Positions 6,001 to 39,941 are shown, counted from the stretch's first letter. The stretch is DNA of 64,000 nt from a virus (IMGVR_UViG_3300045988_076381); one strand, 5' to 3'. Notes: generated by a model from the sequence alone, not told the origin. Made by a program: numbers and translations.

Positions 6001-8148
6001 TTCATCACTAAGGCGTAGATTTTCTTCATTAATAATAGCATCCCACTGATTTATTAACTGTAATGATAGGTCTATTACAGCATCATTTTGGGAAATATCT
6101 CCAGATTCTACAGGAGAGTAATTTATATTCTCTCCTTCTATTGTTCTATTAGTAGCAGAAAGATTTTTTGGAGCTACACCTTGTTGTCTTAATCTCTCTA
6201 ATTCTGAGATTAATTTAGATTTACCTCCATTTCGTAATATGTAAAAGATATTATCAGTAGCTTGTTCCGGAACTCTTTTATTTATATCAGATAAATTATT
6301 AGCAGCTTTAAATATAGCCCCACCAATAGCACCCCCAAATCCAGCCATTAGATATCTTTCCAATGGATTAGAGGATAAGAAATCAAAAGAAGCATCTTTT
6401 TGTGTACCAGAAATTCCTGTGAATACATCTGTAATAGCTTTAGACATATCCATAATAGCTTCTTCTGACATTTCCTCAATTCCCTCAGCTACAGCATTAC
6501 TAGCTATTCCAGAACCTGAGATAATATTATTTATAGGTTCCTTTACTTTTTTAAATGTATTTATAGCTTTCTTTAATACAGAATTAAATGTAGCTTTATC
6601 TTTTGTATTATTTGCAGTATAATGTAATAATTCTCTATTTTCTTCAATAAATTTCTTTCCAGCATTTCTTATAGCGGCCCTTTCACTGTCAAACCCCAAA
6701 CCTTCTAAAGCTTTCTGTCCTATCTCTGTAGATTGTATCATCCAAGTGGTAGCACCCATAGCTAATCCAGCAGTTAGAGCTGCGGTTCTTCTATCATATC
6801 CAGCATCTAGAGCATCATTATATACATCCAAGGTAGAGGTTCCTGACATATAAAAATTAGCCATGAATCTACCTAAGAAATTATTTCTTATATTCGCTTT
6901 ATTTATAGCATTTATAACTGCTGGATCTGAGTTAATGATAGTATTATATAATCCTCTATTTTGAATTATACTACCGTCAGAGATAGCTTTTACTACCTCA
7001 TCTCCATATTTAGCTTTTATAGCTTTTAAAGCAGCTCTTTCAGAGTTTCCTATACCAAGCCAATTAGGGATTTGGGCTAATAATCTCTGTTGGAATAATT
7101 GGGAGCCTATATCAGATACTAACCTTCCAAAATTTTCAAAGGTTAATAATTTCTCTTGAGACTTATCCGATACACTAGTATTAAATTGGTTTGCTTTAGC
7201 TTCTATAGTATTTAATATCCCAAAATTAGGATTTGGATTATTATTAATAGCTCCATCCAGCATTTTATATAAAGTAATCCCTAACTTAGTACCTTCTCTA
7301 AGAACTAAAGCTCCAGCGTATGCTTGACCTACATAGGGGATAAATAGAGGAGCTATACTAGCTACAGTTTGTGCTATAGTAGACCCAATACTTGATTCTT
7401 CTCCATCATTATCAAAAAAATCAAATTTATTCCATGTAGAATTTTCTCTAGTAATTACATCAAATGCACTTAATACCTGTTTACCATGAACTTCTCGATT
7501 CCCAAGAGTTTCATAATAAGGCATTCCAGTCTCATCTAGTTTTATCTCTCCTTTTTTATGTTGTATTAATCTCCCAGTTTCTGGATCAGTCTCTTGAACA
7601 TCTTTATCATACTGAGCCAGAACTATAGGAGTTTTAGTTACTGTTCCCCAAAATCCTAGATCCTCTGGAGTTAAATCCATCCATCTGTTATTCTCGGTAT
7701 CGAAGATTTTATTTTGTTGAGCCATTTCTCTAGTAGACATACTAGTCATTTCTGTACCTAGTATAGTATTTAATCCAGTACTCTGAATAAAGGGATTTTT
7801 AGTCTTTATTATATCTAAGGAAATGTCTTGTACAGGAGAAAGTTGGGATTTAAAAGGAGACATTATATCATACTGCACCTTAGGAAGATCTTCTTCTGTG
7901 AATTGTCCTATAGATAATGTATTATATGAAGATAATGCTTTATTATAAAATGTATTAAATGCGTTATCATCAAACTTTCCATCTGGCGAAGTAAATGCTT
8001 GAATGATCTTTTCATTTTGTTTATATTCATCCTTTGACTTCAATTCTATATCATTAGGAGTAATTCCATTTTGTAAGAAGTCTATATAAGTTTTATCTTG
8101 GTTTGAGTAATATAACCCAAACCAATCTTTTTTCTCTAAATTATCCAT
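1..8148 (-). CDS. giant virion/ejection-type protein (>2716 aa, 3' end lies beyond the window start) with an embedded SF1 helicase-like P-loop NTPase module
   Basis: The ATG at 8148..8146 translates as MDNLEKKDWFGLYYSN. No stop occurs down to base 1. The ORF track lists only terminated ORFs, which explains why it shows nothing on the minus strand here. I checked these motifs as in frame: Walker A INGAPGVGKTTGV (3325..3348), Walker B RLIFIDEVTQL (2902..2922), motif-VI-like TAITRSKEGTIII (2245..2271). Glycine-zipper hydrophobic segments occur near the N-terminal third. Confidence 0.8.
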   Translation of the reverse strand, partial: MDNLEKKDWFGLYYSNQDKTYIDFLQNGITPNDIELKSKDEYKQNEKIIQAFTSPDGKFDDNAFNTFYNKALSSYNTLSIGQFTEEDLPKVQYDIMSPFKSQLSPVQDISLDIIKTKNPFIQSTGLNTILGTEMTSMSTREMAQQNKIFDTENNRWMDLTPEDLGFWGTVTKTPIVLAQYDKDVQETDPETGRLIQHKKGEIKLDETGMPYYETLGNREVHGKQVLSAFDVITRENSTWNKFDFFDNDGEESSIGSTIAQTVASIAPLFIPYVGQAYAGALVLREGTKLGITLYKMLDGAINNNPNPNFGILNTIEAKANQFNTSVSDKSQEKLLTFENFGRLVSDIGSQLFQQRLLAQIPNWLGIGNSERAALKAIKAKYGDEVVKAISDGSIIQNRGLYNTIINSDPAVINAINKANIRNNFLGRFMANFYMSGTSTLDVYNDALDAGYDRRTAALTAGLAMGATTWMIQSTEIGQKALEGLGFDSERAAIRNAGKKFIEENRELLHYTANNTKDKATFNSVLKKAINTFKKVKEPINNIISGSGIASNAVAEGIEEMSEEAIMDMSKAITDVFTGISGTQKDASFDFLSSNPLERYLMAGFGGAIGGAIFKAANNLSDINKRVPEQATDNIFYILRNGGKSKLISELERLRQQGVAPKNLSATNRTIEGENINYSPVESGDISQNDAVIDLSLQLINQWDAIINEENLRLSDEELISLSALRDRRVEDLIKFDGRLDIIRDYNQLGKEIGNLLLEKKDIENRLNAPNKEIPNKTELESRLNIINEELQQKRTEKDILLRGGKSEEYLKRALFNISEISNKIYSSDIYTYTENILGKPYGSLSESEREEIKSRYKAYREDNNEKLDKAYKIFTSLSQKYGDNIINIVSKLPLLNKIKGYLSGIDEEALLNLDEDAKRNFDLARKLGLELGVPVERGIDYIFEYRNTDLSDINTQNIIKNFFNSINQDGSGIDVGSIFSTYKNSGEFISNIFDTIFNIDQKIDTLSNSINNKLNSDPTLDKNFVIRESIEEFLNKNISNSIVKSYIQNNLNLPNLNSSEEVISNIRKILINLSGLLQFNLIPQLRTRSMMNLIESARNEGIELTKDLYSYIKTYLKSDNKVELDYSSYVSNLLSYVDESLGELVNYDLQNIKSQSPDFQAALKEGFEEIGVNNLEEVIQISEELKNVKDWFEIASLLKNSNLNDVEKRIIIESINDSNKSKTKSSLSEINILSEASIDPSQLVENPLNTLLSEIYLNVDESAGNINIFELLSNESDLLKSTNTLSDYVLQGKVKLEQLDTAINVINALQSVVSSMQSSTIENGGYGFNSTLNYVREKLGVSEKLPEIESNSAFEVIQELERIKNKLGFYKKLSEQNKGNKLKEHKLTAIKTRQALIKNYQDKLFRNKAPELFEGVDDILSNYNLDSLNNSDLTDEEYISLEKLILEVEDRIYDNATKLSKNNTVSKEHLISKLFQNYDYSKLMKEAYNNPASLNSEITEMSPSDLFIYYHTILTTKASTFNNALRDIVNESLGSDKQLIIPIFSQEYAARIALACIIDINFMNNSTELTKEFENSITNPALRDKYKNYISRLQNTVFINGAPGVGKTTGVDSLVFKLANKLLGEQGAVISGPKMQQTVNLLNSITGKSYSETEGLNTINDTIKNKKLTAITADMLLNSILVSPEIIEKAKKQFNDPQSKTIPENERVIDILETQDKELVVRINPKYLTPSNFKSGIFQDQRLIFIDEVTQLSKFELELLSSWAQQNDKILITSGDLLQSGYAGSDGAYLGIDVDTNLIYTPTLATSLRITNIHKKDNLDSLRVLTDRVRNVDNYYTTGEFNLEEGIKIALSNYENVPSLKYYEDDVKLSGDKIVGSISTFDLDKLVHDSEEPIGFIYDDVNSDTYKLIDTYIKKNPGKIRKFKLEEVQGSEAKYFIVDKKFNFGSHGEFVEKATRDLYTAITRSKEGTIIINNGLTTKLTKGSERISYTQSSILNNEAAKSFSELRLKALNASLENKTIEPQKKESSTTSVSTPQPNVELGKVLDAAFSDSPEANREIQQLERIESKTEKHSPDSFICYSYRTRIKPKAEINGDITTYSIKDSAIMLRLDSNSEHRAFFNGEIDGLNPTQFERVDEKILEVKSILYNYTKSRRNKLFKDYNIEQDLSNLYNDISGNTGTLDLSNGKFVLKATKYFNKSIGKEDSVIRIIYEIPILNSSTEENTVELYIVELPNINNESFRIKDSDTPEQRASKAWFVEYQKFYGQIMNSFILDESGKSNKYFQLRDDFELERITNSIIYKGSDKKKFAHVPFESKESEFRGIYFSKPYIVTNTRYGKSNRNELLIQRNERLNTLYNDYYETLEEYNKADTTQKSRLEPILKSKSERLNAEINKNNIKGKAVVFATHSKYIFDEDDNIISEDQYGDYYIDQMNGKYDNDLDRRDKIRMIILNPEGQTFQSFISKYREFINSYKKNSGVAKYNGKFYKSYFGDFIGFDTLLSIYNYYNYLKTTGKPESKHIKIAEKLLNSLSALAAKEGNAENPFDLPGSKVKFGLPHILRIMERLHMETTPEEIKKMENYSSTINGNDVLKFINKIIEFKINQRLHPELLVSSPIINEENGGIFQDWNKEDGITDLDIIDFMEFAMLGRRNYKQPDGSINSVEAPNYNPLFKNGIFPFPVYELTDKKTDYTGGEYFYEARNPEGQYYIDRDIQTPQ

Positions 8149-8149
8149 A

Positions 8150-10024
8150 TTATTTAAATGCCTCTGGATTTAATCCTCCAGTTCTTTGTGTAATTTGATT
8201 AGTATTTCTTATTACATTCTCGTAACCTAAATTAGATTTAGCTGTTTGTGGAGCTGTTTTTCCTGTGAATAAGATTGACATTAATTCATCTTGTACAGGT
8301 AAGAATATAGAGGATTTATAAATATCATCGTCAGAAAGAAGCCAGTATTCTGGAGGTACATAACCATTAGCTCTTAATAATTTATTTTCTAAATTTGATC
8401 TAACTCTAGAATACATATCCCTAGCTTTATCCTCCAAATCATTACTTAATCTCTTAGTAACTTTATTTAATTGTGTCTCCTCTGCTACTTCTTCTGGGAT
8501 TAGAGATGGGATAACCATAAATTGATGCATATAAGATAATTGACTTTGTGCAGGTTCTCCATTTCTAAGTATCAAATGATCAACATTATGCGCTCTATAA
8601 ATATTTAATTTCTGATCTTCTGTAACAGTTGGACCTATAGCAGAAATTTCATTATCAGCATCCTCTAAACGTTTTAACGCATTTAAATCTACTACTTTAG
8701 ATCCTGTTTTGGGATCGGTTACATAGGGCAACCATGTCATTGCTATTCTATCCCCTTCATATAGCACTTTACTTAAATCATTAGGATTTAAAGTAATTCC
8801 AGTTCCAACAGAAGCTCCAGAAATATCTACTAAAGAACCTAATCCCCCATCTGTGATTATATCAGATAAGTAATTCTCATTTAATACTTCTCCTTTAGAT
8901 CCTATTAGGGGTCGTATACTAGCCTTAGCATCAAAAGAATATTTATTTCCTACATTTATAGTATATTTTTGATTTTTGGGATCAGATACATAACTCATTA
9001 AAGGATTGATATCAGTCATTCCTCCCGAACCTCCTGATCCACTTCCAGATTTACCTTCTATAGCTTCATCTTTTAAAGATTGAGAGTAGGAATGATCTGT
9101 TCCGAATATAAGAATATTCTTAATACTCTCTATTGCATTTTCTCTAGGATCTCCAGTATTATTAATAGCAGCTCTTGCTATTAAAGTGTTTCTAGATTGT
9201 TGATCTAAGTTATTCCATATATAATTTAACGCAAGATTAGCATTCTTCCTTTGTGTAGCAACTTCCTCAGTTAATTTAAAAGTTCCATCAGGAGCGGTAT
9301 TTAACTTCTCACTTACAATAGCTTGTAATCCTTTTTCTAATTGATTAGCTCTAGCTTTATCAAAGTAATAATCAGAAGATTGTTTTTCTACTCCTATAGA
9401 TTTAACAATATCCTCTATTCTTTTACTTATATCATTTATATTTAAGCTTCCAGCAACAGTTTGTGATAAACTATTATCAAATATATAAGCTCTACTATTA
9501 TTTCTTAAAGTTAAAAGATCATTATTAGTTAGTATCCTATATCCTTCTCTATCTTCTGAATACTGATCTGGAGTAATCATTACAAGTTCTCCATTAGTAT
9601 TTTGTGCAAATAAATTCCCGGAATAATCAACTGCTGCTTCTGAAAGTGTTCCTTTAGATAAAGCATGTTCTTTTGCTTGATCAAATATCTGTTTATTATT
9701 CTGAATCTCGTTTAATCTAGATACTAATCCTGTATATTGTCTAACGCTGATAGGTTGTCCTAAAAGATCTGTATCAGCAAAGATATTACCAACTTGTTCC
9801 GCGAAATAATTAACTTCATTAGTTAATCCTTTACCAACCATTTGACCTATAATATCTTTCAACTGTTTCTGAGAATTATCAATCTTAGTATCACCAGATT
9901 TAGCAGAAGAATTAGCTACGGCTGATGTCCCTTCTTCTCTTCCAATAGGTTGAAAGAAAGGAGAATACCCAACCCACGGGGCCAGTTGTCCTCCTTCTTG
10001 AAATTTTTTAATATTTAACTTCAT
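8150..10024 (-). CDS. virion internal/ejection-type protein, function unknown (624 aa)
   Basis: Long ORF packed tightly between its neighbours. The N-terminus MKLNIKKFQEGG carries the recurrent aromatic-x-x-GG motif. It contains an internal GSGSGGSGG linker. Confidence 0.6.
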   Translation of the reverse strand: MKLNIKKFQEGGQLAPWVGYSPFFQPIGREEGTSAVANSSAKSGDTKIDNSQKQLKDIIGQMVGKGLTNEVNYFAEQVGNIFADTDLLGQPISVRQYTGLVSRLNEIQNNKQIFDQAKEHALSKGTLSEAAVDYSGNLFAQNTNGELVMITPDQYSEDREGYRILTNNDLLTLRNNSRAYIFDNSLSQTVAGSLNINDISKRIEDIVKSIGVEKQSSDYYFDKARANQLEKGLQAIVSEKLNTAPDGTFKLTEEVATQRKNANLALNYIWNNLDQQSRNTLIARAAINNTGDPRENAIESIKNILIFGTDHSYSQSLKDEAIEGKSGSGSGGSGGMTDINPLMSYVSDPKNQKYTINVGNKYSFDAKASIRPLIGSKGEVLNENYLSDIITDGGLGSLVDISGASVGTGITLNPNDLSKVLYEGDRIAMTWLPYVTDPKTGSKVVDLNALKRLEDADNEISAIGPTVTEDQKLNIYRAHNVDHLILRNGEPAQSQLSYMHQFMVIPSLIPEEVAEETQLNKVTKRLSNDLEDKARDMYSRVRSNLENKLLRANGYVPPEYWLLSDDDIYKSSIFLPVQDELMSILFTGKTAPQTAKSNLGYENVIRNTNQITQRTGGLNPEAFK

Positions 10025-33615: not shown

Positions 33616-34626
33616 TTATTTACTAGTCTTACTAGTAGGTTTACTTTTATTCTCCAATGGAAGTTTTTCGGCATTTTCTAAATCTTTTAATATTTCGGAA
33701 TCAGACTTAGAATCATCCAGAAAACCCTGTGTTGTAGATACCTCATTCTGTGCTTTTAAATCCTCAATTCTTTTATTATCATCGGAAATAGCTTCTATAA
33801 TTACATCCTTATCCTTTACAGAAATTTCTTGAATTTCTCTTAAAATCCTATCAGTAATAAGTTTATTCTTAGGATTTTTCATAAAATCAATACAAGAATC
33901 AGCATCTCTACCTATGATATCATTATCATTATATGTATACAATCCTGCTTTCTGTCGTAAAATACCTTTCTGTTTAGCATATGTAAATGCTATTAGATAT
34001 TTAGTATCATTACTCTCAAATAAAGAAATAATCTTCTCAGCATCTTTTTTAGCAAATTCTGTTAGAAACTCTTCAATTTCCTCATCGTAAGCATCTTTTA
34101 TATATTTACCTAAAAGCATTGCTCTAATTCTTAAAGCATCTCTTGAAGCATTATAAATATAATTTAGTGCTTTATTTAGTTTCCTTGAGGCTGTATTACG
34201 TTTTTTAGTATCCTCAACAATCCTTTCTACATAATAAACTGCTTGAGGTCCGATTTTTTCATTTGGTCCTACTAACATTTTACCACTTTCATCAAATTTC
34301 CCTTTACTATCAAAAATAAGATCAGAAAATTTAATAGCTTCCCATTGTTTAGATTTAACAGGATTACTTAGATCAAACTCATCCCCATCTTTAATAAAGA
34401 ATCTATCAGTAGTTCTAACGAAATAATCCAAAGGATCATCATCTTTACCTAAGATAATATTTCCAGATGAATCCACATTTCTGACACAAGAAGGAAATTC
34501 TCTTGTTAATGGATTCTTAACTGGGGAAATTGACATTCCAGCGTGATTAGGACCAAAACGGCTACGTAAATGTATTACCGTATCAAGTTCCTCTTTTAAA
34601 GCAGTTGTACTTATACTCATATTCAT
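33616..34626 (-). CDS. hypothetical structural protein (336 aa)
   Basis: ORF immediately downstream of the MCP terminator. Confidence 0.45.
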   Translation of the reverse strand: MNMSISTTALKEELDTVIHLRSRFGPNHAGMSISPVKNPLTREFPSCVRNVDSSGNIILGKDDDPLDYFVRTTDRFFIKDGDEFDLSNPVKSKQWEAIKFSDLIFDSKGKFDESGKMLVGPNEKIGPQAVYYVERIVEDTKKRNTASRKLNKALNYIYNASRDALRIRAMLLGKYIKDAYDEEIEEFLTEFAKKDAEKIISLFESNDTKYLIAFTYAKQKGILRQKAGLYTYNDNDIIGRDADSCIDFMKNPKNKLITDRILREIQEISVKDKDVIIEAISDDNKRIEDLKAQNEVSTTQGFLDDSKSDSEILKDLENAEKLPLENKSKPTSKTSK

Positions 34627-34682: not shown

Positions 34683-34747
34683 TTATTTATTATAGCGGAT
34701 TCTGTCTAAAGATAACAGAACGATAGGGTGCGTATACTGATACGCCG
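34683..34747 (-). CDS. MCP exon 7 (..S)AYQYTHPIVLLSLDRIRYNK*
   Basis: The frame is fixed by exon 6 ending GGGGTT. The 3' splice site lies after GACAG; an alternative site sits 3 nt downstream. The stop TAA is at 34685..34683. Confidence 0.55.
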
Positions 34748-37700
34748 CTGTCATTTATATTTAAATAAGATCGTTACTCTTATTCGAGCGTTTGCTCCAC
34801 TATGTCGCCATAGTGATTAGACTATATCTTTAACTTAAACACTGTTACCATATTTAAGTTACTCTCCATTTCCGATAGACTTCTATCGTACTCTACTCAT
34901 TTACTTGTTATAGGATTTCTCTATAACTACACTTTCGATAGTCGTTGAACTTTATATACTACTAAATGTGATTTAGTGTATATCTTAGCTGCTGATTGTC
35001 TAAGATAGAGTTTCCAGCAATTAGAAGAGTTGTTTTCTCTAATATCGCTACTAAAGGGGGTCTAAGCTTTAAAATTTTCAGATATCAAACCCCAGTAAAT
35101 CATTTTCTTGAGCCTCCTGATCATTTTTGATCAAGAATCTTCATATTTCCATGAAGAACAGACTATATTATCACTTTTAAAAGTGTCTCCTCTTTCGAAC
35201 TTATTTAAGTTCTATGCCTATTTAATAGGACTTACTAGTCGTTGAACCTTTTTCTTTATTTAAAGAAACTTGGCTGCGGATTGTCTAATATTTAACCTTG
35301 TTACTATACCGAAGTAGTTACCTTCGCCATATAATTATTGCTAATTATATTTAGTAGTTAAATCTCTAAAGATGTTCCCGCAATTTAGGAGATTAGGATC
35401 CAAAATGATTCAGATCCTGCAACTGGTGTGCTAGCGGTTCCTCCTGAGATACCGTCGATCCCGCCTCAAAGGCTATTTTCTTATATTTTCATATAAGTTA
35501 GACTATATCATTAACTTGTTATAAGTTTATTCAATATATTTAAACACAAACCCTTTACAATGTGAAGCAGTTCCTTTAAGAACCTTGCTAACATTAGCAT
35601 ATTGTTTTCTACATTCCCTAACAGTATCAAATGTTTCTAATAGATTTCCTTCAAAATCATATCTTCCTACTTTTCTTTTTTTACATGGATTGAAATTTTT
35701 GGGAATTTCTAATTTATCTACTTTCTCCCAAGACCAAAAGTATCCACCATAACTTTGATTTAGATTTATAGCATTAGATAATCTATTTTGTTTTAAATTA
35801 CAAAATTCCTTAGCTTCTTTAGAATTTTTAAAACTACGTAAAAAATTACCTTCTAAATCATACTGATAGATAGGGTCATTACTTCTTTTTCTTTCTTGAG
35901 ATTTTATTGGATAAACATCAAATTTTCTATCGGAAATATAATATTTAGATATTTTAGTTCCTAATTTTACAGCTTTCTGTATTGAACTAAGATTAACATC
36001 TAAGTATCTAGCTGTATCAGACATAGATTTAAATTCCATGAAAAATACTCCTTTAGAAGTATATAAATAAGTTGATTTCTTTTGTAAAATAGGTTTGTTA
36101 GACAGATCTAGTTTATCAACTTTTATATCAGACCAATAAAATTCTCCACTCATACTTCCATTCAATACTGCACGCCCAATTGCAGCTTCATGAATATGAA
36201 TATGATCAGATGCCTCTTTAATACTATTAAAAGATCGTAAATAGTTTCCGGATAAAGAATACTGGTATATAATTTTATTTAATAATGGAGGAGTATCTCC
36301 GCCTAATGTAATATTATATGTATCAGATCTTCCAATGAAATTTTCATTTACTAAAAATCTTTCAATATTTTCTGCTTCTTCTCTTGTATTACATATAAAT
36401 AATGTAACTCTAGAGAAAGCATCAAATCCGTATTTCTTAACAGCACTCTGAAAAGGAGTTTTTGGATGTAATATACTAGATGGTTTATATATATTTACCC
36501 CATTTCCCAAATATCCATCAAATTTATCAGGATTCTCTGTTTCGTGTATTCCAATATAAATTTTTCTGTTTTTATTATTTATCGTTAGGTATACTATAGT
36601 TTTCATATATTGTGTTTTTACTTATACATTAAGTTATTTCCCATTTCGGAAGTAGAACTTCCTACGTCTATCCAGACTAGTCGTTGAACCCAATTTTGGA
36701 GTTTACATAAGTCTTACATATCCCAAAACCTTGGCTGCTGATTAGCATGTAATATTTATATTATTTAGCTTTCCAGCAATTAGAGAAATTTATTTTTCTG
36801 CATATCACTATGCAGCGGCGCAAGCGGATCTATTTACGCCAATTACATCAGTTTTAATCATATCACAGCCCTTGAACGTCCAAGATTCAATAGCTGGTTT
36901 TCCGTTAGCTAAGTCCGGAGTTAAGTCAAGAATAAATCCAAATGCTTGATCAGGATATTCTATATTTAAAGCTTTATCCGGCATAAAAGTAATCGTATTA
37001 CCCTGATATTCATAGCTAACAAAAGTATTACCTACTTTAACACCATCAACCGTTTCACCTACTTTCTTCTTCATACCAGAAGATTTACTATACATCAAAG
37101 TAGCAGTAGGAGTCCACCTTCCAATTTCATCCATTAAGTTATCACCAACCTGATTCCAAAGTAAAGAGTTACAGATTAATACGTAATCATTACCAGTTAA
37201 ATTCTTTGCCTTAGAGGTTAAGAAACTTAATGCTTCTTTGAAGTGTGAAGTAAGTAATTGATCGAAAGAGATTAAGTATGCATATCTTTCAATTTGAGGA
37301 ATTATCATTTGTGTTAGCTTTATGTTACCATAAAGATCAGACTATATCTTAATCTTATATATTTAATTATTAAGATCCCCTCCATTTCGAGAAATTTTTC
37401 TCTACTCCATATTGGATAGTCGTTGAACGTTTCTTATAAAAGACTTCGCTGCTGATTGTCTTTATATTTAAAGATGTTCCAGCAATTAGAAGGGTGTTTC
37501 AGTATTTATCACTAAATAAAGCGGCAAATTTCTTACCGTCGCCTATATACACTATTTATACTTTATATCACTATAAAGATTAGACTATATCATCAACTTA
37601 TCTTGTAACAATTATTTTTATTTAATTATTTAAGTTGTTCCCTGCTTCCATATATAAATATGTACGTCCGAAGACTAGTCGTTGAACTTTCATTAAATAT

Positions 37701-39941
37701 GATATAAATATATACAATATTTAATGCTTAGCTGCTGATTGCCTTTAAGTAGCAGATTAAAGATATTCCAGCAATTCAAGGAATTTAATTTATCATACTG
37801 TTTCCAGTATGCGACCCATGTTTAACATAGACGTTTGTTAAAATTTCCCAGGTCTCTGCGTTTGCGAATCAATTATAGTCGGTTTTCCGTTCTTATCCAC
37901 ATTACTACGTGCCCAAAGATCATGTTTAGCTTTAACTTCCAAGAAATTCTCAATCAAGGTCTTTTCCATTGAAGTCATAGTAAACAATTTCTCACTTCCC
38001 TTAGTTTCTGTATCACTAATTTTCAAGAATACATCTTCATTAGCTAAATAGGCTTGAGATGCATCAATATCATTTCTATGTAAGGTTAAGTAGTTACGAT
38101 GAACCTCCATATTAGACTGATATTTAGTCGTTCCAAAGTCGTGATAATCAAACGGATGAGCATTTGATAAGAAGTGAGTAGTCATACCAGGTTGACACGC
38201 AGAAGTATCAAGATACGACATATAATCAGTATCGATTAATCGAACAGTGTATTCATAATATTTATTACTTCTCCAAATTGGACGAGCAGTAACATAACAC
38301 TGTTGATGTGATTTATCTATCACGAAAATATCATGTTTATCGTAGTATTTTTCTTTAAACAACATCCGAATTTCAGTTCCTCCAACACCATCGCCTTCTG
38401 GAACAGCAACAAACGGAATACGTTTAATGAACCTATTCTATTTAAAGAACTTAGACTATATCATTTACTTATTAGTATGATATTTAAAGATATAATCTTT
38501 ATAATATCTATCCCCCATCTGGATATTCTTTAATTTATTTGATGGGATATTGTATTTTTCTCTTACTTCTTTTATAGTATTTAAAGTCTCTATATAATTC
38601 CCAAATTTATCATACACATCAATTATCATTCCATTAGAATAACATTTTTGTGGAACTTTAGATACTTCTGTAGTAGATATGTAATAATCCTTATACCATC
38701 CCTCGTTATAAGATAATATATTCTGAATTTTAGCCCATGAATGAAGATTTATAACCTTCATTACTTCTTTCCCTTTAAATCTTCCTATATAATTTCCTTC
38801 TTTATCATATACATAATAAATAAGATTCTTACAACTTATCCTAGCCTTCGGAATAAATTCATCTACTAACTTCTTAGATATATAATATTGATTCTGTACT
38901 AGAGACTGATTTTTAATAGCTTTACTTATATCTAATATTCCTATATATTCAGCACATTCCTTTTCTGATTGAAACTCATTTAAGAGCTTCCCTTTTTTAG
39001 AATATAAATATACAGAAATAGGTGGATTAGATTTCTTACAATATTTAATAACATCTATCTCTGGTTCTAATGCCCAATAAGAATTAAGAAATTCACATTT
39101 CTTATCTATAGCATATTGAAATTTTTTAGGAGATTGTCCGTAAAAATCAAATACTTCTAAAGAATATTCCCATTTCTTTTGTAACTCTCCAGATGTATTA
39201 AATTGATAAATTGTTTTATATAAATCTGTATTTAAATAATTATAAGTATGATCCGCTTTTAAATACTCAGTATTTATTAACTCAGATTCTTTATTATACG
39301 CCTCTTCTAGAGTATCATAAATATATAAAGTAGTTCTCTCAAATGCTTTTGTTCCATACTTTTTAACAGCATATTGAAATGGAGTTTTTGGGTACATATA
39401 AGTACTTGGTTGATCTATATAAACTCCACACCCTAAATATCCATCAAAAGTATTAGGATCATTTGTCTGATGCACTCCAATATAAATTTTATTTAACTCT
39501 CCAACTTTAGATTTTAAATTTTTAGTAAGATATACAATATATTTCATAAGTAATTCAGTTTTTTAATCTTATTTAAATAATAAGATTTACAGGTTTCCCC
39601 TAGTCGTTGAACACTGTCTTCATCAAGACCATGCTGCTGATTATCTCTAGTAGCAGTAGAGAGTTCCCAGCAATTTAAAGAATTTATTGTGAACCTCATT
39701 GATTCACATCCACGTCCCATTCGATAGCAAAAGCATCAATACTCTTACGTCCGGGCTTAGGAATATCTTGATAAACCATATTTTCAATTCTCTCAGTTAA
39801 AGCTGATACAGTATGTCCGGGACATAAAGATGCAGCTAAACCTACTCTATGAGTAATTCGTCCCAAGAATTGGGAGAAGTCATGAAAAGTTCTTGAGCCA
39901 TTCATATTGGCTCGATTTGAAATGTATTCTGCTACAAACAT
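34683..39941 (-). CDS. major capsid protein gene, interrupted: 7 exons, 6 group I introns; spliced product about 485 aa
   Basis: Three listed ORFs (39696..39941, 37838..38365, 36808..37308) read as consecutive pieces of one HK97-type capsid protein. The gene follows a scaffold-like gene and precedes a terminator. The exon lengths 240+582+15+482+55+19+65 sum to 1458 nt, which is in frame throughout. The intervening DNA carries group I core elements and stops in all frames. Confidence 0.8.
34748..35087 (-). mobile_element. group I intron 6 of MCP (about 340 nt, ORF-less)
   Basis: The minus strand carries P TCTAATTGCTGGAAAC, Q AATCAGCAGC, R GTTCAACGACTAT (34938-34950) and S AAGATATAGTCTAA (34817-34830). 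The P1 helix GGGGTT(T)/(T)AGACCCC places a U.G pair at the 5' splice site. Confidence 0.75.
35088..35106 (-). CDS. MCP exon 6, 19-nt micro-exon (KMIYWG + 1 nt)
   Basis: The exon is AAAATGATTTACTGGGGTT. Its first 9 nt are complementary to AATCATTTT beside the guide sequence of intron 5 (P10). Its last 6-7 nt form P1 of intron 6. Confidence 0.65.
35107..35411 (-). mobile_element. group I intron 5 of MCP (305 nt, ORF-less)
   Basis: It carries P CTAAATTGCGGGAAC, Q AATCCGCAGC, R GTTCAACGACTAG (35236-35247) and S AATATAGTCTG (35158-35169). The P1 helix AGGATCT/GGATCCT ends in a U.G pair. Confidence 0.75.
35412..35466 (-). CDS. MCP exon 5 (55 nt; (V)GGIDGISGGTASTPVAGS)
   Basis: This is a GC-rich island between two introns. 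The 3' splice site after CCTTTG is supported by P10 pairing of AGGCGG with CCGCTT beside the intron 4 guide. This is the only frame that joins exon 4 (ending GT) to exon 6. Confidence 0.65.
35467..36835 (-). mobile_element. group I intron 4 of MCP (1369 nt) carrying a GIY-YIG homing endonuclease gene
   Basis: It carries P CTAATTGCTGGAAAG, Q AATCAGCAGC and R GTTCAACGACTAG (36678-36689). The HEG lies between R and S, and S is GATATAGTCTAA (35498-35510). The P1 helix GGCGT/GCGCC ends in a U.G pair. Confidence 0.8.
35527..36606 (-). CDS. GIY-YIG homing endonuclease (359 aa), intron-encoded
   Basis: The N-terminus reads IVYLTINNKNRKIYIGIHE...GYLGNG...FLVNENF...YNITLGG, which fits GIY-YIG. Four nuclease-associated repeat modules follow (IYQYSL.GNYLRSF.S..EA etc.). 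Confidence 0.8.
   Translation of the reverse strand: MKTIVYLTINNKNRKIYIGIHETENPDKFDGYLGNGVNIYKPSSILHPKTPFQSAVKKYGFDAFSRVTLFICNTREEAENIERFLVNENFIGRSDTYNITLGGDTPPLLNKIIYQYSLSGNYLRSFNSIKEASDHIHIHEAAIGRAVLNGSMSGEFYWSDIKVDKLDLSNKPILQKKSTYLYTSKGVFFMEFKSMSDTARYLDVNLSSIQKAVKLGTKISKYYISDRKFDVYPIKSQERKRSNDPIYQYDLEGNFLRSFKNSKEAKEFCNLKQNRLSNAINLNQSYGGYFWSWEKVDKLEIPKNFNPCKKRKVGRYDFEGNLLETFDTVRECRKQYANVSKVLKGTASHCKGFVFKYIE
36836..37317 (-). CDS. MCP exon 4 (482 nt; LTQMIIPQIERY...KTDVIG + GT)
   Basis: This is the body of listed ORF 36808..37308, extended 3 codons upstream to the 3' splice site after the P9 hairpin CTTTATGGTAACATAAAG. The listed ORF tail NRSACAAA is intron read-through. Confidence 0.7.
37318..37534 (-). 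mobile_element. group I intron 3 of MCP (217 nt, ORF-less)
   Basis: It carries P CTAATTGCTGGAAC, Q AATCAGCAGC, R GTTCAACGACTAT (37417-37428) and S AAGATATAGTCTG (37338-37350). The P1 helix CGGT/GCCG is short (4 bp) and has a U.G pair. Confidence 0.7.
37535..37549 (-). CDS. MCP exon 3, micro-exon (best model 15 nt, YIGDG; an 8-nt alternative exists)
   Basis: A segment of about 100 nt between S of intron 2 and P of intron 3 contains GC-rich GGCGACGGT. The 15-nt model keeps the frame from exon 2 (ends CCT) to exon 4 (starts CTA). Its 5' boundary is uncertain. Confidence 0.4.
37550..37849 (-). mobile_element. group I intron 2 of MCP (about 300 nt, ORF-less)
   Basis: It carries P GAATTGCTGGAAT, Q AATCAGCAGC, R GTTCAACGACTAG (37676-37687) and S GATATAGTCTAA (37581-37592). 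The P1 helix GACCT/GGGTC ends in a U.G pair. The P2 hairpin is CATACTG-GAAA-CAGTATG. Confidence 0.75.
37850..38431 (-). CDS. MCP exon 2 (582 nt; FIKRIPFVAVPEGDGVGGTEIRMLFKEKYY...SQTQRP)
   Basis: This is listed ORF 37838..38365 extended 22 codons upstream in frame to the 3' splice site AATAGG|TTCATT. The P10 pairing is TCATT/AATGA. Confidence 0.75.
38432..39701 (-). mobile_element. group I intron 1 of MCP (1270 nt) carrying a GIY-YIG homing endonuclease gene
   Basis: The P1 helix GTGAAT/GTTCAC has a U.G pair. It carries P AAATTGCTGGGAAC, Q AATCAGCAGC and R GTTCAACGACTAG (39601-39612). The HEG follows, then S GATATAGTCTAA (38451-38463). Confidence 0.8.
38465..39547 (-). CDS. GIY-YIG homing endonuclease (360 aa), intron-encoded; paralog of 35527..36606
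   Basis: It reads MKYIVYLTKN...KIYIGVHQTNDPNTFDGYLGCGVY...PKTPFQYAVKKYG. This is colinear with the other HEG (PKTPFQSAVKKYG). Repeat modules follow downstream. Confidence 0.8.
   Translation of the reverse strand: MKYIVYLTKNLKSKVGELNKIYIGVHQTNDPNTFDGYLGCGVYIDQPSTYMYPKTPFQYAVKKYGTKAFERTTLYIYDTLEEAYNKESELINTEYLKADHTYNYLNTDLYKTIYQFNTSGELQKKWEYSLEVFDFYGQSPKKFQYAIDKKCEFLNSYWALEPEIDVIKYCKKSNPPISVYLYSKKGKLLNEFQSEKECAEYIGILDISKAIKNQSLVQNQYYISKKLVDEFIPKARISCKNLIYYVYDKEGNYIGRFKGKEVMKVINLHSWAKIQNILSYNEGWYKDYYISTTEVSKVPQKCYSNGMIIDVYDKFGNYIETLNTIKEVREKYNIPSNKLKNIQMGDRYYKDYIFKYHTNK
39702..39941 (-). CDS. MCP exon 1 (240 nt; MFVAEYISNRANMNG...AFAIEWDVDVN)
   Basis: This is listed ORF 39696..39941 minus its last codon. 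The 5' splice site follows GTGAAT. Confidence 0.75.

Follow-up and report, generated by a model that had tools for sequence, protein, structure and literature searches.

How can a complete major capsid protein (MCP) be made from a gene that gene callers recognize only in pieces? The question is raised by a locus on the minus strand of the viral contig IMGVR_UViG_3300045988_076381, of which a stretch of 64,000 nucleotides (the window) was analyzed. In the flagged part of the window, the listing of open reading frames (ORFs) gives three large capsid-like fragments of 81, 175, and 166 amino acids, as had been noticed in an earlier reading made without database searches (the sequence-only reading). 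It was proposed there that the fragments belong to one MCP gene, with six group I introns separating its seven exons. Matches in Rfam, a covarying catalytic core, colinearity with uninterrupted homologs, and the precise absence of four of the six introns in near-identical strains all agree with this proposal, and the locus is very probably a single crAss-type MCP gene of that architecture. In corrected coordinates it occupies positions 34690-39941 of the minus strand (5252 nt). The introns add up to 3806 nt, which is 72.5 % of the locus and agrees with the earlier estimate of about 72 %, and the exons to 1446 nt, corresponding to 481 codons and a stop codon.

The spacers between the capsid fragments have the characteristics of group I ribozymes. 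A search with the covariance model RF00028 of Rfam (Intron_gpI; gathering threshold 50 bits), which had been suggested as a check, places four introns above the threshold, all on the minus strand: intron 3 (37544-37318, 107.2 bits), intron 6 (35081-34798, 88.2 bits), intron 2 (37838-37561, 77.0 bits), and intron 5 (35479-35139, 66.1 bits). No further Rfam match was obtained at curated thresholds within the 64-kb window. With permissive filters, intron 4 was recognized as two halves of the model (36845-36610, 47 bits, E 6.5e-10, and 35574-35480, 26.3 bits, E 1e-3) and intron 1 by its 5' half (39739-39535, 34.1 bits, E 5e-6). Both of these introns hold all of the P, Q, R, and S motifs of the group I core. 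The sequences GTTCAACGACTA, AATTGCKGGRA, and AATCMGCAGC each occur in six minus-strand copies, all of them inside the locus (chance expectation 0.00-0.07), and ATATAGTCT has six copies in the locus and one elsewhere, by chance; these counts agree with the six sets of core motifs on the coding strand that had been described.

When the six introns were folded together with RNAalifold after trimming of the ORFs, helices P3, P4, P5, and P9 were recovered, with double compensatory changes in 14 of 28 pairs, such as the replacement of a U-A pair in P4 by G-C in intron 5. Covariation was scored for these four helices only, since the MAFFT alignment covered the core and not the peripheral helices P1, P2, P6, and P8; P7 is invariant across the six introns and therefore uninformative in this respect. 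The covarying core helices indicate that the six introns belong to one subfamily of ribozymes and have diverged while the structure was kept; they are not recent copies of one another. We take the P7/J8-7 part of their core to be very similar to that of the T4 td intron.

All parts of the gene lie on the minus strand. Exon 1 (39941-39702; 240 nt, amino acids 1-80) is colinear with the homologs and 99-100 % identical to exon 1 of the close relatives described below. It is followed by intron 1 (39701-38432; 1270 nt), which ends in G and contains HEG-1, an ORF of 360 amino acids (38465-39547) located between the P8 region and the 3' strand of P7 and assigned below to a homing endonuclease gene (HEG). 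Exon 2 (38431-37850; 582 nt, amino acids 81-274) and exon 4 (37305-36836; 470 nt) are defined by their ORFs as well as by alignments with homologs and relatives. Between them lie intron 2, an ORF-less element of 297 nt that extends either from 37849 to 37553, with A as its last base, or from 37848 to 37552, with G as its last base; exon 3 (37552-37535), an 18-nt micro-exon encoding VYIGDG that is delimited by intron-less alleles and has an exact 18- to 19-nt match in the relatives; and the ORF-less intron 3 (37534-37306; 229 nt), of which the 3' end is set by an empty allele. Intron 4 (36835-35467; 1369 nt) contains HEG-2, an ORF of 359 amino acids (35527-36606). Exon 5 (35466-35412; 55 nt) was placed by alignment with homologs and relatives, and the ORF-less intron 5 (35411-35107; 305 nt) by the homologs together with the guide helices P1 and P10. 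Exon 6 (35106-35088), a second micro-exon of 19 nt, follows from alignments with the relatives, and the ORF-less intron 6 (35087-34752; 336 nt) has an empty counterpart in one of them. Exon 7 (34751-34690; 62 nt) comprises 59 coding nt and the stop codon TAA at 34692-34690, and its frame, YSGVSVYAPYRSVIFRQNPL followed by the stop, matches the C-termini of the homologs.

Naturally empty sites were available for comparison with the junctions. In IMG/VR, a search for relatives gave eight contigs of 27-164 kb (most of them >80 kb), classed as viral genomes in that database, with exons 94-100 % identical to those of the window; they are referred to here as L009, L010, L011, L014, L017, L019, L029, and L031. 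Exon sequence of these relatives is contiguous exactly at the corrected junctions 2, 3, 4, and 6, which gives the ligated sequence at these four positions, from empty alleles with 95-100 % identity. Site 2 is empty in L009, L017, and L019, which read CAGAGACCCGTTTATATTGGAGACGGT, that is, CAG AGA CCC GTT TAT ATT GGA GAC GGT, or QRPVYIGDG. Site 3 is empty in L029 and L031 (GGCGATGGAATTATTCCTCAA, read as GGC GAT GGA ATT ATT CCT) and site 4 in L011, L014, and L031 (ATT GGG GTC GGG GGT), where no gap is present at the junction. The empty site 6 of L010 (TGGGGTTACAGCGGCGTATCAG; TGG GGT TAC AGC GGC GTA) is 100 % identical to the corrected junction in which 35088 is joined to 34751.

These alleles change the exact model of the sequence-only reading in several places. 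In that model 37850 was joined to 37549, 37535 to 37317, and 35088 to 34747, giving a product of 485 amino acids with its stop codon at 34685-34683. It can be said for the model that its joined frame is open over all 485 codons, that every intron in it ends in G after a 5' U, and that the Rfam match of intron 3 ends near 37318, where this intron was thought to stop. Its 3' splice site at junction 4 is upheld by the empty alleles, whereas those of introns 2, 3, and 6 were off by 3, 12, and 4 nt, respectively. At site 3 the alleles without an intron have the sequence GGCGATGGAATTATTCC, and at site 6 they have TGGGGTTACAGCGGCG. Intron 3 thus ends at G37306 instead of 37318, and the four residues LTQM of the earlier product are surplus; intron 6 ends at G34752 instead of 34748, and the model lost ACAG, so that exon 7 was read out of frame and the final 25 residues were incorrect. 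An exon 3 of 15 nt had been drawn, and this becomes 18 nt because GTG is exonic according to the empty alleles and the alignments. The comparison with intact MCPs that had been recommended for the 485-residue product showed it to be colinear overall, with a residue missing at junction 2, LTQM inserted at junction 3, and an unalignable C-terminus; homolog coverage ended at residue 464. The corrected frame matches the homologs in this region (...WGYSG..VYAPYRSVIFRQ). An uninterrupted joined frame is thus retained, with 481 codons, and it is most improbable that the gene is spliced precisely as in the first model.

The corrected MCP of 481 amino acids is colinear with uninterrupted homologs from end to end and aligns without gaps to the proteins of four more distant loci (L005-L008) at 73-80 % identity. 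It ends in ...KMIYWGYSGVSVYAPYRSVIFRQNPL, and its relatives in ...KMIYWGYSGIVVYAPYRSVIFRQ.... The 485-residue product had matched 112 proteins, mostly uninterrupted ones of ~465-480 amino acids with the Crass_capsid domain (PF23898), and the spliced product scores 37.5 bits against this Pfam family (cut-off 27). Junction 1 (VDVN-FIKR) and junction 5 (AGS-KMIYWG) are both free of gaps when compared with the uninterrupted homologs. A tblastn search of the GenBank phages in INPHARED returned two distant, unannotated records alone (41-46 % identity) and no annotated close relative. The junction-spanning peptides predicted for the MCP include DVDVNFIKR, RPVYIGDGIIPQIER, GVGGIDGISGG, AGSKMIYWGYSGVSVYAPYR, and MIYWGYSGVSVYAPYR.

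A further line of evidence is the pairing between the exons and the internal guide sequences. All of the pairings with a U.G wobble at the 5' splice site that had been reported for introns 1 to 6 are present in the sequence, namely GUGAAU/GUUCAC, GACCU/GGGUC, CGGU/GCCG, GGCGU/GCGCC, AGGAUCU/GGAUCCU, and GGGGUU/AGACCCC; for introns 3 and 6, the third and last of these, an automatic search for P1 settled on spurious alternatives. A U before the 5' splice site, engaged in the wobble pair, is found in introns 1, 3, 4, 5, and 6; intron 2 has the pair U37850.G, but its use together with retention of the valine discussed below would need a terminal A. Introns 1, 3, 4, 5, and 6 also have a terminal G at junctions that were placed with the help of homologs or empty alleles (both in the case of introns 3 and 6), so the claim that every intron ends in G stands for these and is uncertain for intron 2. 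P1 measures 7 bp in introns 1 and 5 and 6 bp in intron 4, each time including the U.G pair, and P10 measures 6, 7, and 10 bp in introns 1, 4, and 5, respectively. Each micro-exon is used at both of its ends: its 5' nucleotides can form P10 with the upstream intron and its 3' nucleotides P1 with the downstream one. Skipping of the 18-nt exon would leave the reading frame intact at the cost of six amino acids, and skipping of the 19-nt exon would shift it.

The relatives differ from the window, and from each other, in the introns that they carry. Six introns are present in the window, five in L009 (intron 2 absent, intron 3 in a 901-nt form), and likewise five in L017 and L019, which resemble L009 and have a 1404-nt form of intron 6. 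L029 (without intron 3) and L014 (without intron 4) also have five. In L031 both introns 3 and 4 are missing and intron 6 measures 1445 nt, which leaves four. L010 lacks intron 6, but a seventh intron inserted near mRNA position 1154-1162 brings its count to six; L011 lacks intron 4, shares this seventh intron, and probably has six as well, its 19-nt exon 6 being unplaced inside a 1727-nt gap. The seventh intron (7441-7717 in L010, 7442-7718 in L011) is ORF-less, ~270 nt long, inserted at amino acid ~384, and scores 78.3 bits in Rfam. The same site is occupied in L005 by a single HEG-bearing intron (7902-9110), and L001-L004 have a single HEG-bearing intron near amino acid 181 (6953-7982 in L001). 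The MCP genes of L006, L007, and L008, which like L001-L005 belong to the group with 73-80 % amino acid identity, are uninterrupted. A search of L001, L002, and L004-L006 at the Rfam gathering threshold gave no match, which, single introns being split by a HEG, is no evidence that introns are absent. Taking the window and its relatives together, the MCP lineage has seven or eight intron sites, and the MCP gene is uninterrupted in 73 of the 86 loci that were fetched.

HEG-1 and HEG-2 are paralogs with 37 % identity. NUMOD1 was detected in HEG-2 with 77 bits (E 9.8e-22) and in HEG-1 with 25.2 bits, at a cut-off of 22.8 bits, and HEG-2 also matches the I-HmuI_NUMOD-like family (37.2 bits). Both are assigned to 'homing endonuclease' in PHROG (HEG-1 to phrog_314, E 1e-11; HEG-2, E 6e-23). 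Their family also occupies the long forms of intron 6 in L017, L019, and L031 (1404-1445 nt), which carry a HEG of 361 amino acids, as well as the introns at amino acids 181 and 384 of the relatives. The 901-nt form of intron 3 (6601-7501 in L009, L017, and L019) contains an ORF of 203 amino acids that is unrelated to HEG-1 and HEG-2 by phmmer and may represent another family of endonucleases that uses this insertion site. The occurrence of ORF-less and ORF-bearing versions of an intron at one site, next to empty sites, is what a homing cycle predicts. Downstream of intron 4, the initial ~22 nt of the exon (35440-35466 in the window) differ at ~9 positions between the intron-bearing allele and the intron-less alleles of L014, L031, and L011, compared with one difference in 25 nt in the upstream exon. 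This divergence is consistent with a co-conversion tract or with immunity through divergence of the endonuclease target site. A gene for a NUMOD-type endonuclease of 260 amino acids is also present between two tail ring protein genes in L002 (12917-13699, compared with 12908-13072 in L001); the two contigs are otherwise syntenic there, which makes this another presence/absence polymorphism of a HEG, outside the MCP gene.

Several results weigh against the view that the locus is a functional MCP gene with six self-splicing introns. Introns 1 and 4 score under the gathering threshold of Rfam, because an ORF of ~1.08 kb splits the core of each. Introns 3 and 6 have little or no P10 (0-2 bp), which makes this helix uninformative for their corrected junctions, and none of the close relatives has an empty site for intron 1 or 5, so these two junctions rest on the 73-80 % identical homologs and on P1 and P10. 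The GIY-YIG match (PF01541) in the N-terminus of HEG-2 reaches 19.2 bits, below the cut-off of 22.6, and a search of the N-terminus of HEG-1 with the same family gave no match; neither endonuclease has a sequence match in the PDB, and for HEG-1 none was obtained even at E values up to 1. In a search of 5.8 billion proteins, full-length matches to the product did not exceed 79 % identity, where the assembly of a spliced transcript would yield one of at least 90 %. Finally, intron 2 cannot combine the conserved valine of the protein with both the 5' U and the terminal-G rule.

The missing spliced transcript, the irregular splice site of intron 2, and the four introns without a HEG could also be explained if the gene were a decaying pseudogene, or if some of its introns were dead, so that this copy makes no MCP. 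Against such decay, the 64-kb window yielded no other ORF resembling an MCP, and the gene occupies the normal place in the structural module. The exon frames are intact at 94-100 % identity in nine independent contigs, the core motifs are perfectly conserved in introns whose helices covary, and the same architecture is found on the contigs of IMG/VR. A nonfunctional copy is, on this evidence, very unlikely. Even less credit can be given to an assembly artefact or chimera, or to inteins or translational bypass in the place of RNA introns. These are generic options for any fragmented ORF in a metagenome, and nothing specific speaks for them here; the same introns are present at the same sites on eight independent contigs, and the Rfam ribozyme matches are strong. 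Inteins are rejected because the spacers are full of stop codons and change the reading frame. The interpretation as one MCP gene interrupted by six group I introns is thus maintained.

Where exactly intron 2 is cut deserves separate consideration. From the empty allele, the mRNA is expected to read ...CCU GUG UAU... at junction 2. An in-frame GTG codon for valine lies directly upstream of exon 3 as it was first drawn and matches the GTT of the empty alleles. The valine belongs to RP[IVL]YIGDGIIPQIER, the best-conserved motif of the protein, and none of the aligned homologs has a gap there. It is retained when cleavage takes place after U37850 and after A37553, which leaves the intron with a terminal A, or after G37849 and after G37552, so that the 5' splice site has G.U in place of U.G. 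Both cuts yield an identical mRNA, ...AGACCU-GUGUAUAUAGG (37850 joined to 37552, equivalent to 37849 joined to 37551). With GUG in the exon, P10 of intron 2 comprises 4 bp, compared with 0 bp at the site chosen in the earlier model. An internal hairpin of the intron, GUCUAUG/CAUGGGU, competes with the exon for the guide sequence.

Alternatively, intron 2 might be spliced canonically, at U37850 and with G37550 as its terminal base, to give ...AGACCU-UAUAUAGG (37850 joined to 37549); the MCP of intron-bearing strains would then lack the valine of RPVYIGDG and consist of 480 amino acids. Only this option satisfies the U.G and the terminal-G rules together. The guanosine-binding region in P7 of intron 2 is the same as in the other five introns, which argues against a terminal A, and a synonymous change of GTT to GTG in the intron-bearing alleles would create the terminal G. 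Set against this are the empty alleles, which encode RPVYIGDG, the in-frame GTG of the window at the exact position, the lack of a gap in the homologs, and the guide, which pairs with GUGU (the 4-bp P10) and not with UAUA. Since intron insertion by homing removes no exon bases, since the in-frame GTG specifies the residue of the empty alleles, and since P10 agrees, retention of the valine is favored: it is probably kept in the spliced product, and its loss, although conceivable, is rather doubtful.

On the basis of these sequence features, the following course of expression can be proposed for what appears to be a late structural gene, colonized by six mobile group I introns that form one subfamily related in sequence. 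A single minus-strand precursor transcript of ~5.25 kb would be made, in which every intron would fold its own P3-P9 catalytic core. P1 would arise by pairing of each intron's internal guide sequence with the 4-7 nt that end the upstream exon, and in introns 1, 2, 4, and 5 the guide could also form P10 with the 4-10 nt at the start of the downstream exon. Each intron would then be excised by two guanosine-dependent transesterifications, and all six excisions from the same molecule would be needed to obtain the mRNA of 1446 nt for the MCP of 481 amino acids. It had been assumed that capsid production depends on six sequential ribozyme reactions. This does not follow: as each intron is self-contained and has its own guide, splicing could proceed independently, and the six reactions would be parallel requirements instead of an ordered series. 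HEG-1 and HEG-2, with their NUMOD1 repeats and GIY-YIG-like N-terminus, presumably cut intron-less alleles during co-infection and would in this way drive homing.

The surroundings of the gene are those of a crAss-like phage. Among the ORFs of at least 100 amino acids in the window, 39 of 41 are located on the minus strand. Downstream of the MCP gene, in crAss order, genes are found for a P22-like portal protein, CrAss_Ring_2 (35.8 bits), and a weak match to CrAss_Ring_1. The relatives share this pattern of portal and ring proteins, and a reverse transcriptase gene (RVT_1) immediately precedes their structural block (1-114 in L001, 1-72 in L002); their contigs reach 139-185 kb. No signal of an intron or HEG paralog was obtained outside the MCP gene in the 64-kb window, which makes the capsid gene the sole intron hotspot within it, and no tRNA genes were found in the window. 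The Zeta group of crAss-like phages, proposed as a family in PMC12386605, is characterized by genomes of 145-192 kb, a diversity-generating retroelement within the structural block, and a large number of introns (PMC7886860, PMC12386605). Judged by the contigs of its relatives, the crAss module, the reverse transcriptase gene, and the density of introns, all of which is circumstantial evidence, the phage is probably a large crAss-like member of this group. A terminator-like hairpin with a T run (34679-34653 on the minus strand) follows the MCP gene, as had been noticed; it starts 10 nt past the corrected stop codon, where a distance of 3 nt had been given. This hairpin sits between the MCP gene and the next minus-strand gene (33616-34626), scores on both strands, and is potentially bidirectional.

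The td intron of T4 is a phage group I intron that encodes I-TevI, a modular endonuclease with an N-terminal catalytic module of the GIY-YIG type and C-terminal DNA-binding modules, and that spreads by homing to alleles without the intron when phages co-infect a cell. In T4, a gene carries a single intron, and the ORF is located in the P6 loop, whereas the ORFs in the capsid gene are placed between the P8 region and the 3' strand of P7; in contrast to I-TevI, the GIY-YIG match is below its threshold here. In fungal mitochondria, cox1 is a hotspot of HEG-bearing and HEG-less group I introns that are polymorphic for presence or absence between strains, many of them requiring maturases. It resembles the capsid gene as an essential gene that serves as an intron hotspot with a homing cycle, and differs from it in being organellar and not viral.

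Several introns in one phage gene are also known from phage Twort, in which orf142 contains three self-splicing introns and exon skipping between neighboring introns is reported (Landthaler and Shub 1999, cited in PMC11878797), and from the DNA polymerase and TerL genes of Bastillevirinae, which have several group I introns per gene and at most three (PMC11878797). Whereas splicing of these sets of up to three introns was shown experimentally, the six introns of the capsid gene are known from their sequence. The Jug jumbo phages of the gut, which are associated with Bacteroides, have ~18.5 group I introns per genome and interrupted essential genes, and splicing of 37 of 76 Jug introns was confirmed with metatranscriptome reads (PMC12880540). 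Their introns are spread over many genes, with terL in two to three fragments, in contrast to the single gene affected in the 64-kb window.

A closely similar case has been described in the crAss-like phages themselves. Yutin et al. (2021, Nat Commun; PMC7886860) found up to 14 introns and 3 inteins in genomes of the Zeta group, an 'unprecedented density', and reported that the MCP of the metagenome-assembled genome (cMAG) OLRF01000054 is 'split into five fragments', with domains of group I intron ORFs encoded in three of the four spacers. As in the window, a crAss-like MCP ORF is fragmented there by endonuclease-encoding group I introns, and no recoding occurs inside the OLRF01000054 gene. 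OLRF01000054, which may belong to the same lineage, is compared here by its published description. It has five fragments and four spacers, identified by endonuclease domains only, compared with the seven exons and six introns of the window, four of the latter ORF-less. The window gene is defined at the level of the ribozymes, with nucleotide-exact junctions and micro-exons of 18 and 19 nt. As the introns in that study were found through endonuclease domains, ORF-less introns and micro-exons like those of the window would not have been counted. The extreme rarity that had been ascribed to the locus is thus overstated, multi-intron MCP genes of the Zeta group having been published, with four interruptions and not six. 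Six introns in one phage coding sequence of 1.45 kb is the highest count documented in the literature search; published cases reach four spacers, or three introns. Elements of this kind, the way they work, and their presence in crAss-like MCP genes were already known; the higher density, the micro-exons of 18 and 19 nt, and the seven or eight strain-polymorphic sites go beyond any example found.

In conclusion, the exon map restores an MCP of 481 amino acids for an abundant lineage of gut phages whose capsid gene is seen by gene callers only in pieces. Searches for endonuclease domains undercount introns, as shown by the four out of six that are ORF-less. If each splicing step has an efficiency e, the yield of capsid mRNA would be about e^6, and this in the most highly expressed late gene. 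Of most interest are the matrix in which seven or eight sites are gained and lost among strains, and the possibility that intron 2 is spliced at a non-canonical site. An intron endonuclease of phage PhiPA3 was shown to serve as a weapon between co-infecting phages (PMC11620839). By analogy, and as a speculative and on the whole unlikely combination of proposals, the capsid gene could be an actively contested battleground, with at least seven or eight sites, occupied by one intron/HEG family, gained and lost among strains that are in other respects 94-100 % identical, with an intron load that, beyond mere parasitism, acts as both weapon and immunity between co-infecting strains through cleavage of intron-less capsid alleles by the HEG products, and with non-canonical splicing of intron 2 (either after a G that pairs with U, or with a terminal A). 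The presence/absence matrix of the strains constitutes a natural experiment on the homing cycle and on endonuclease-mediated competition between phages.

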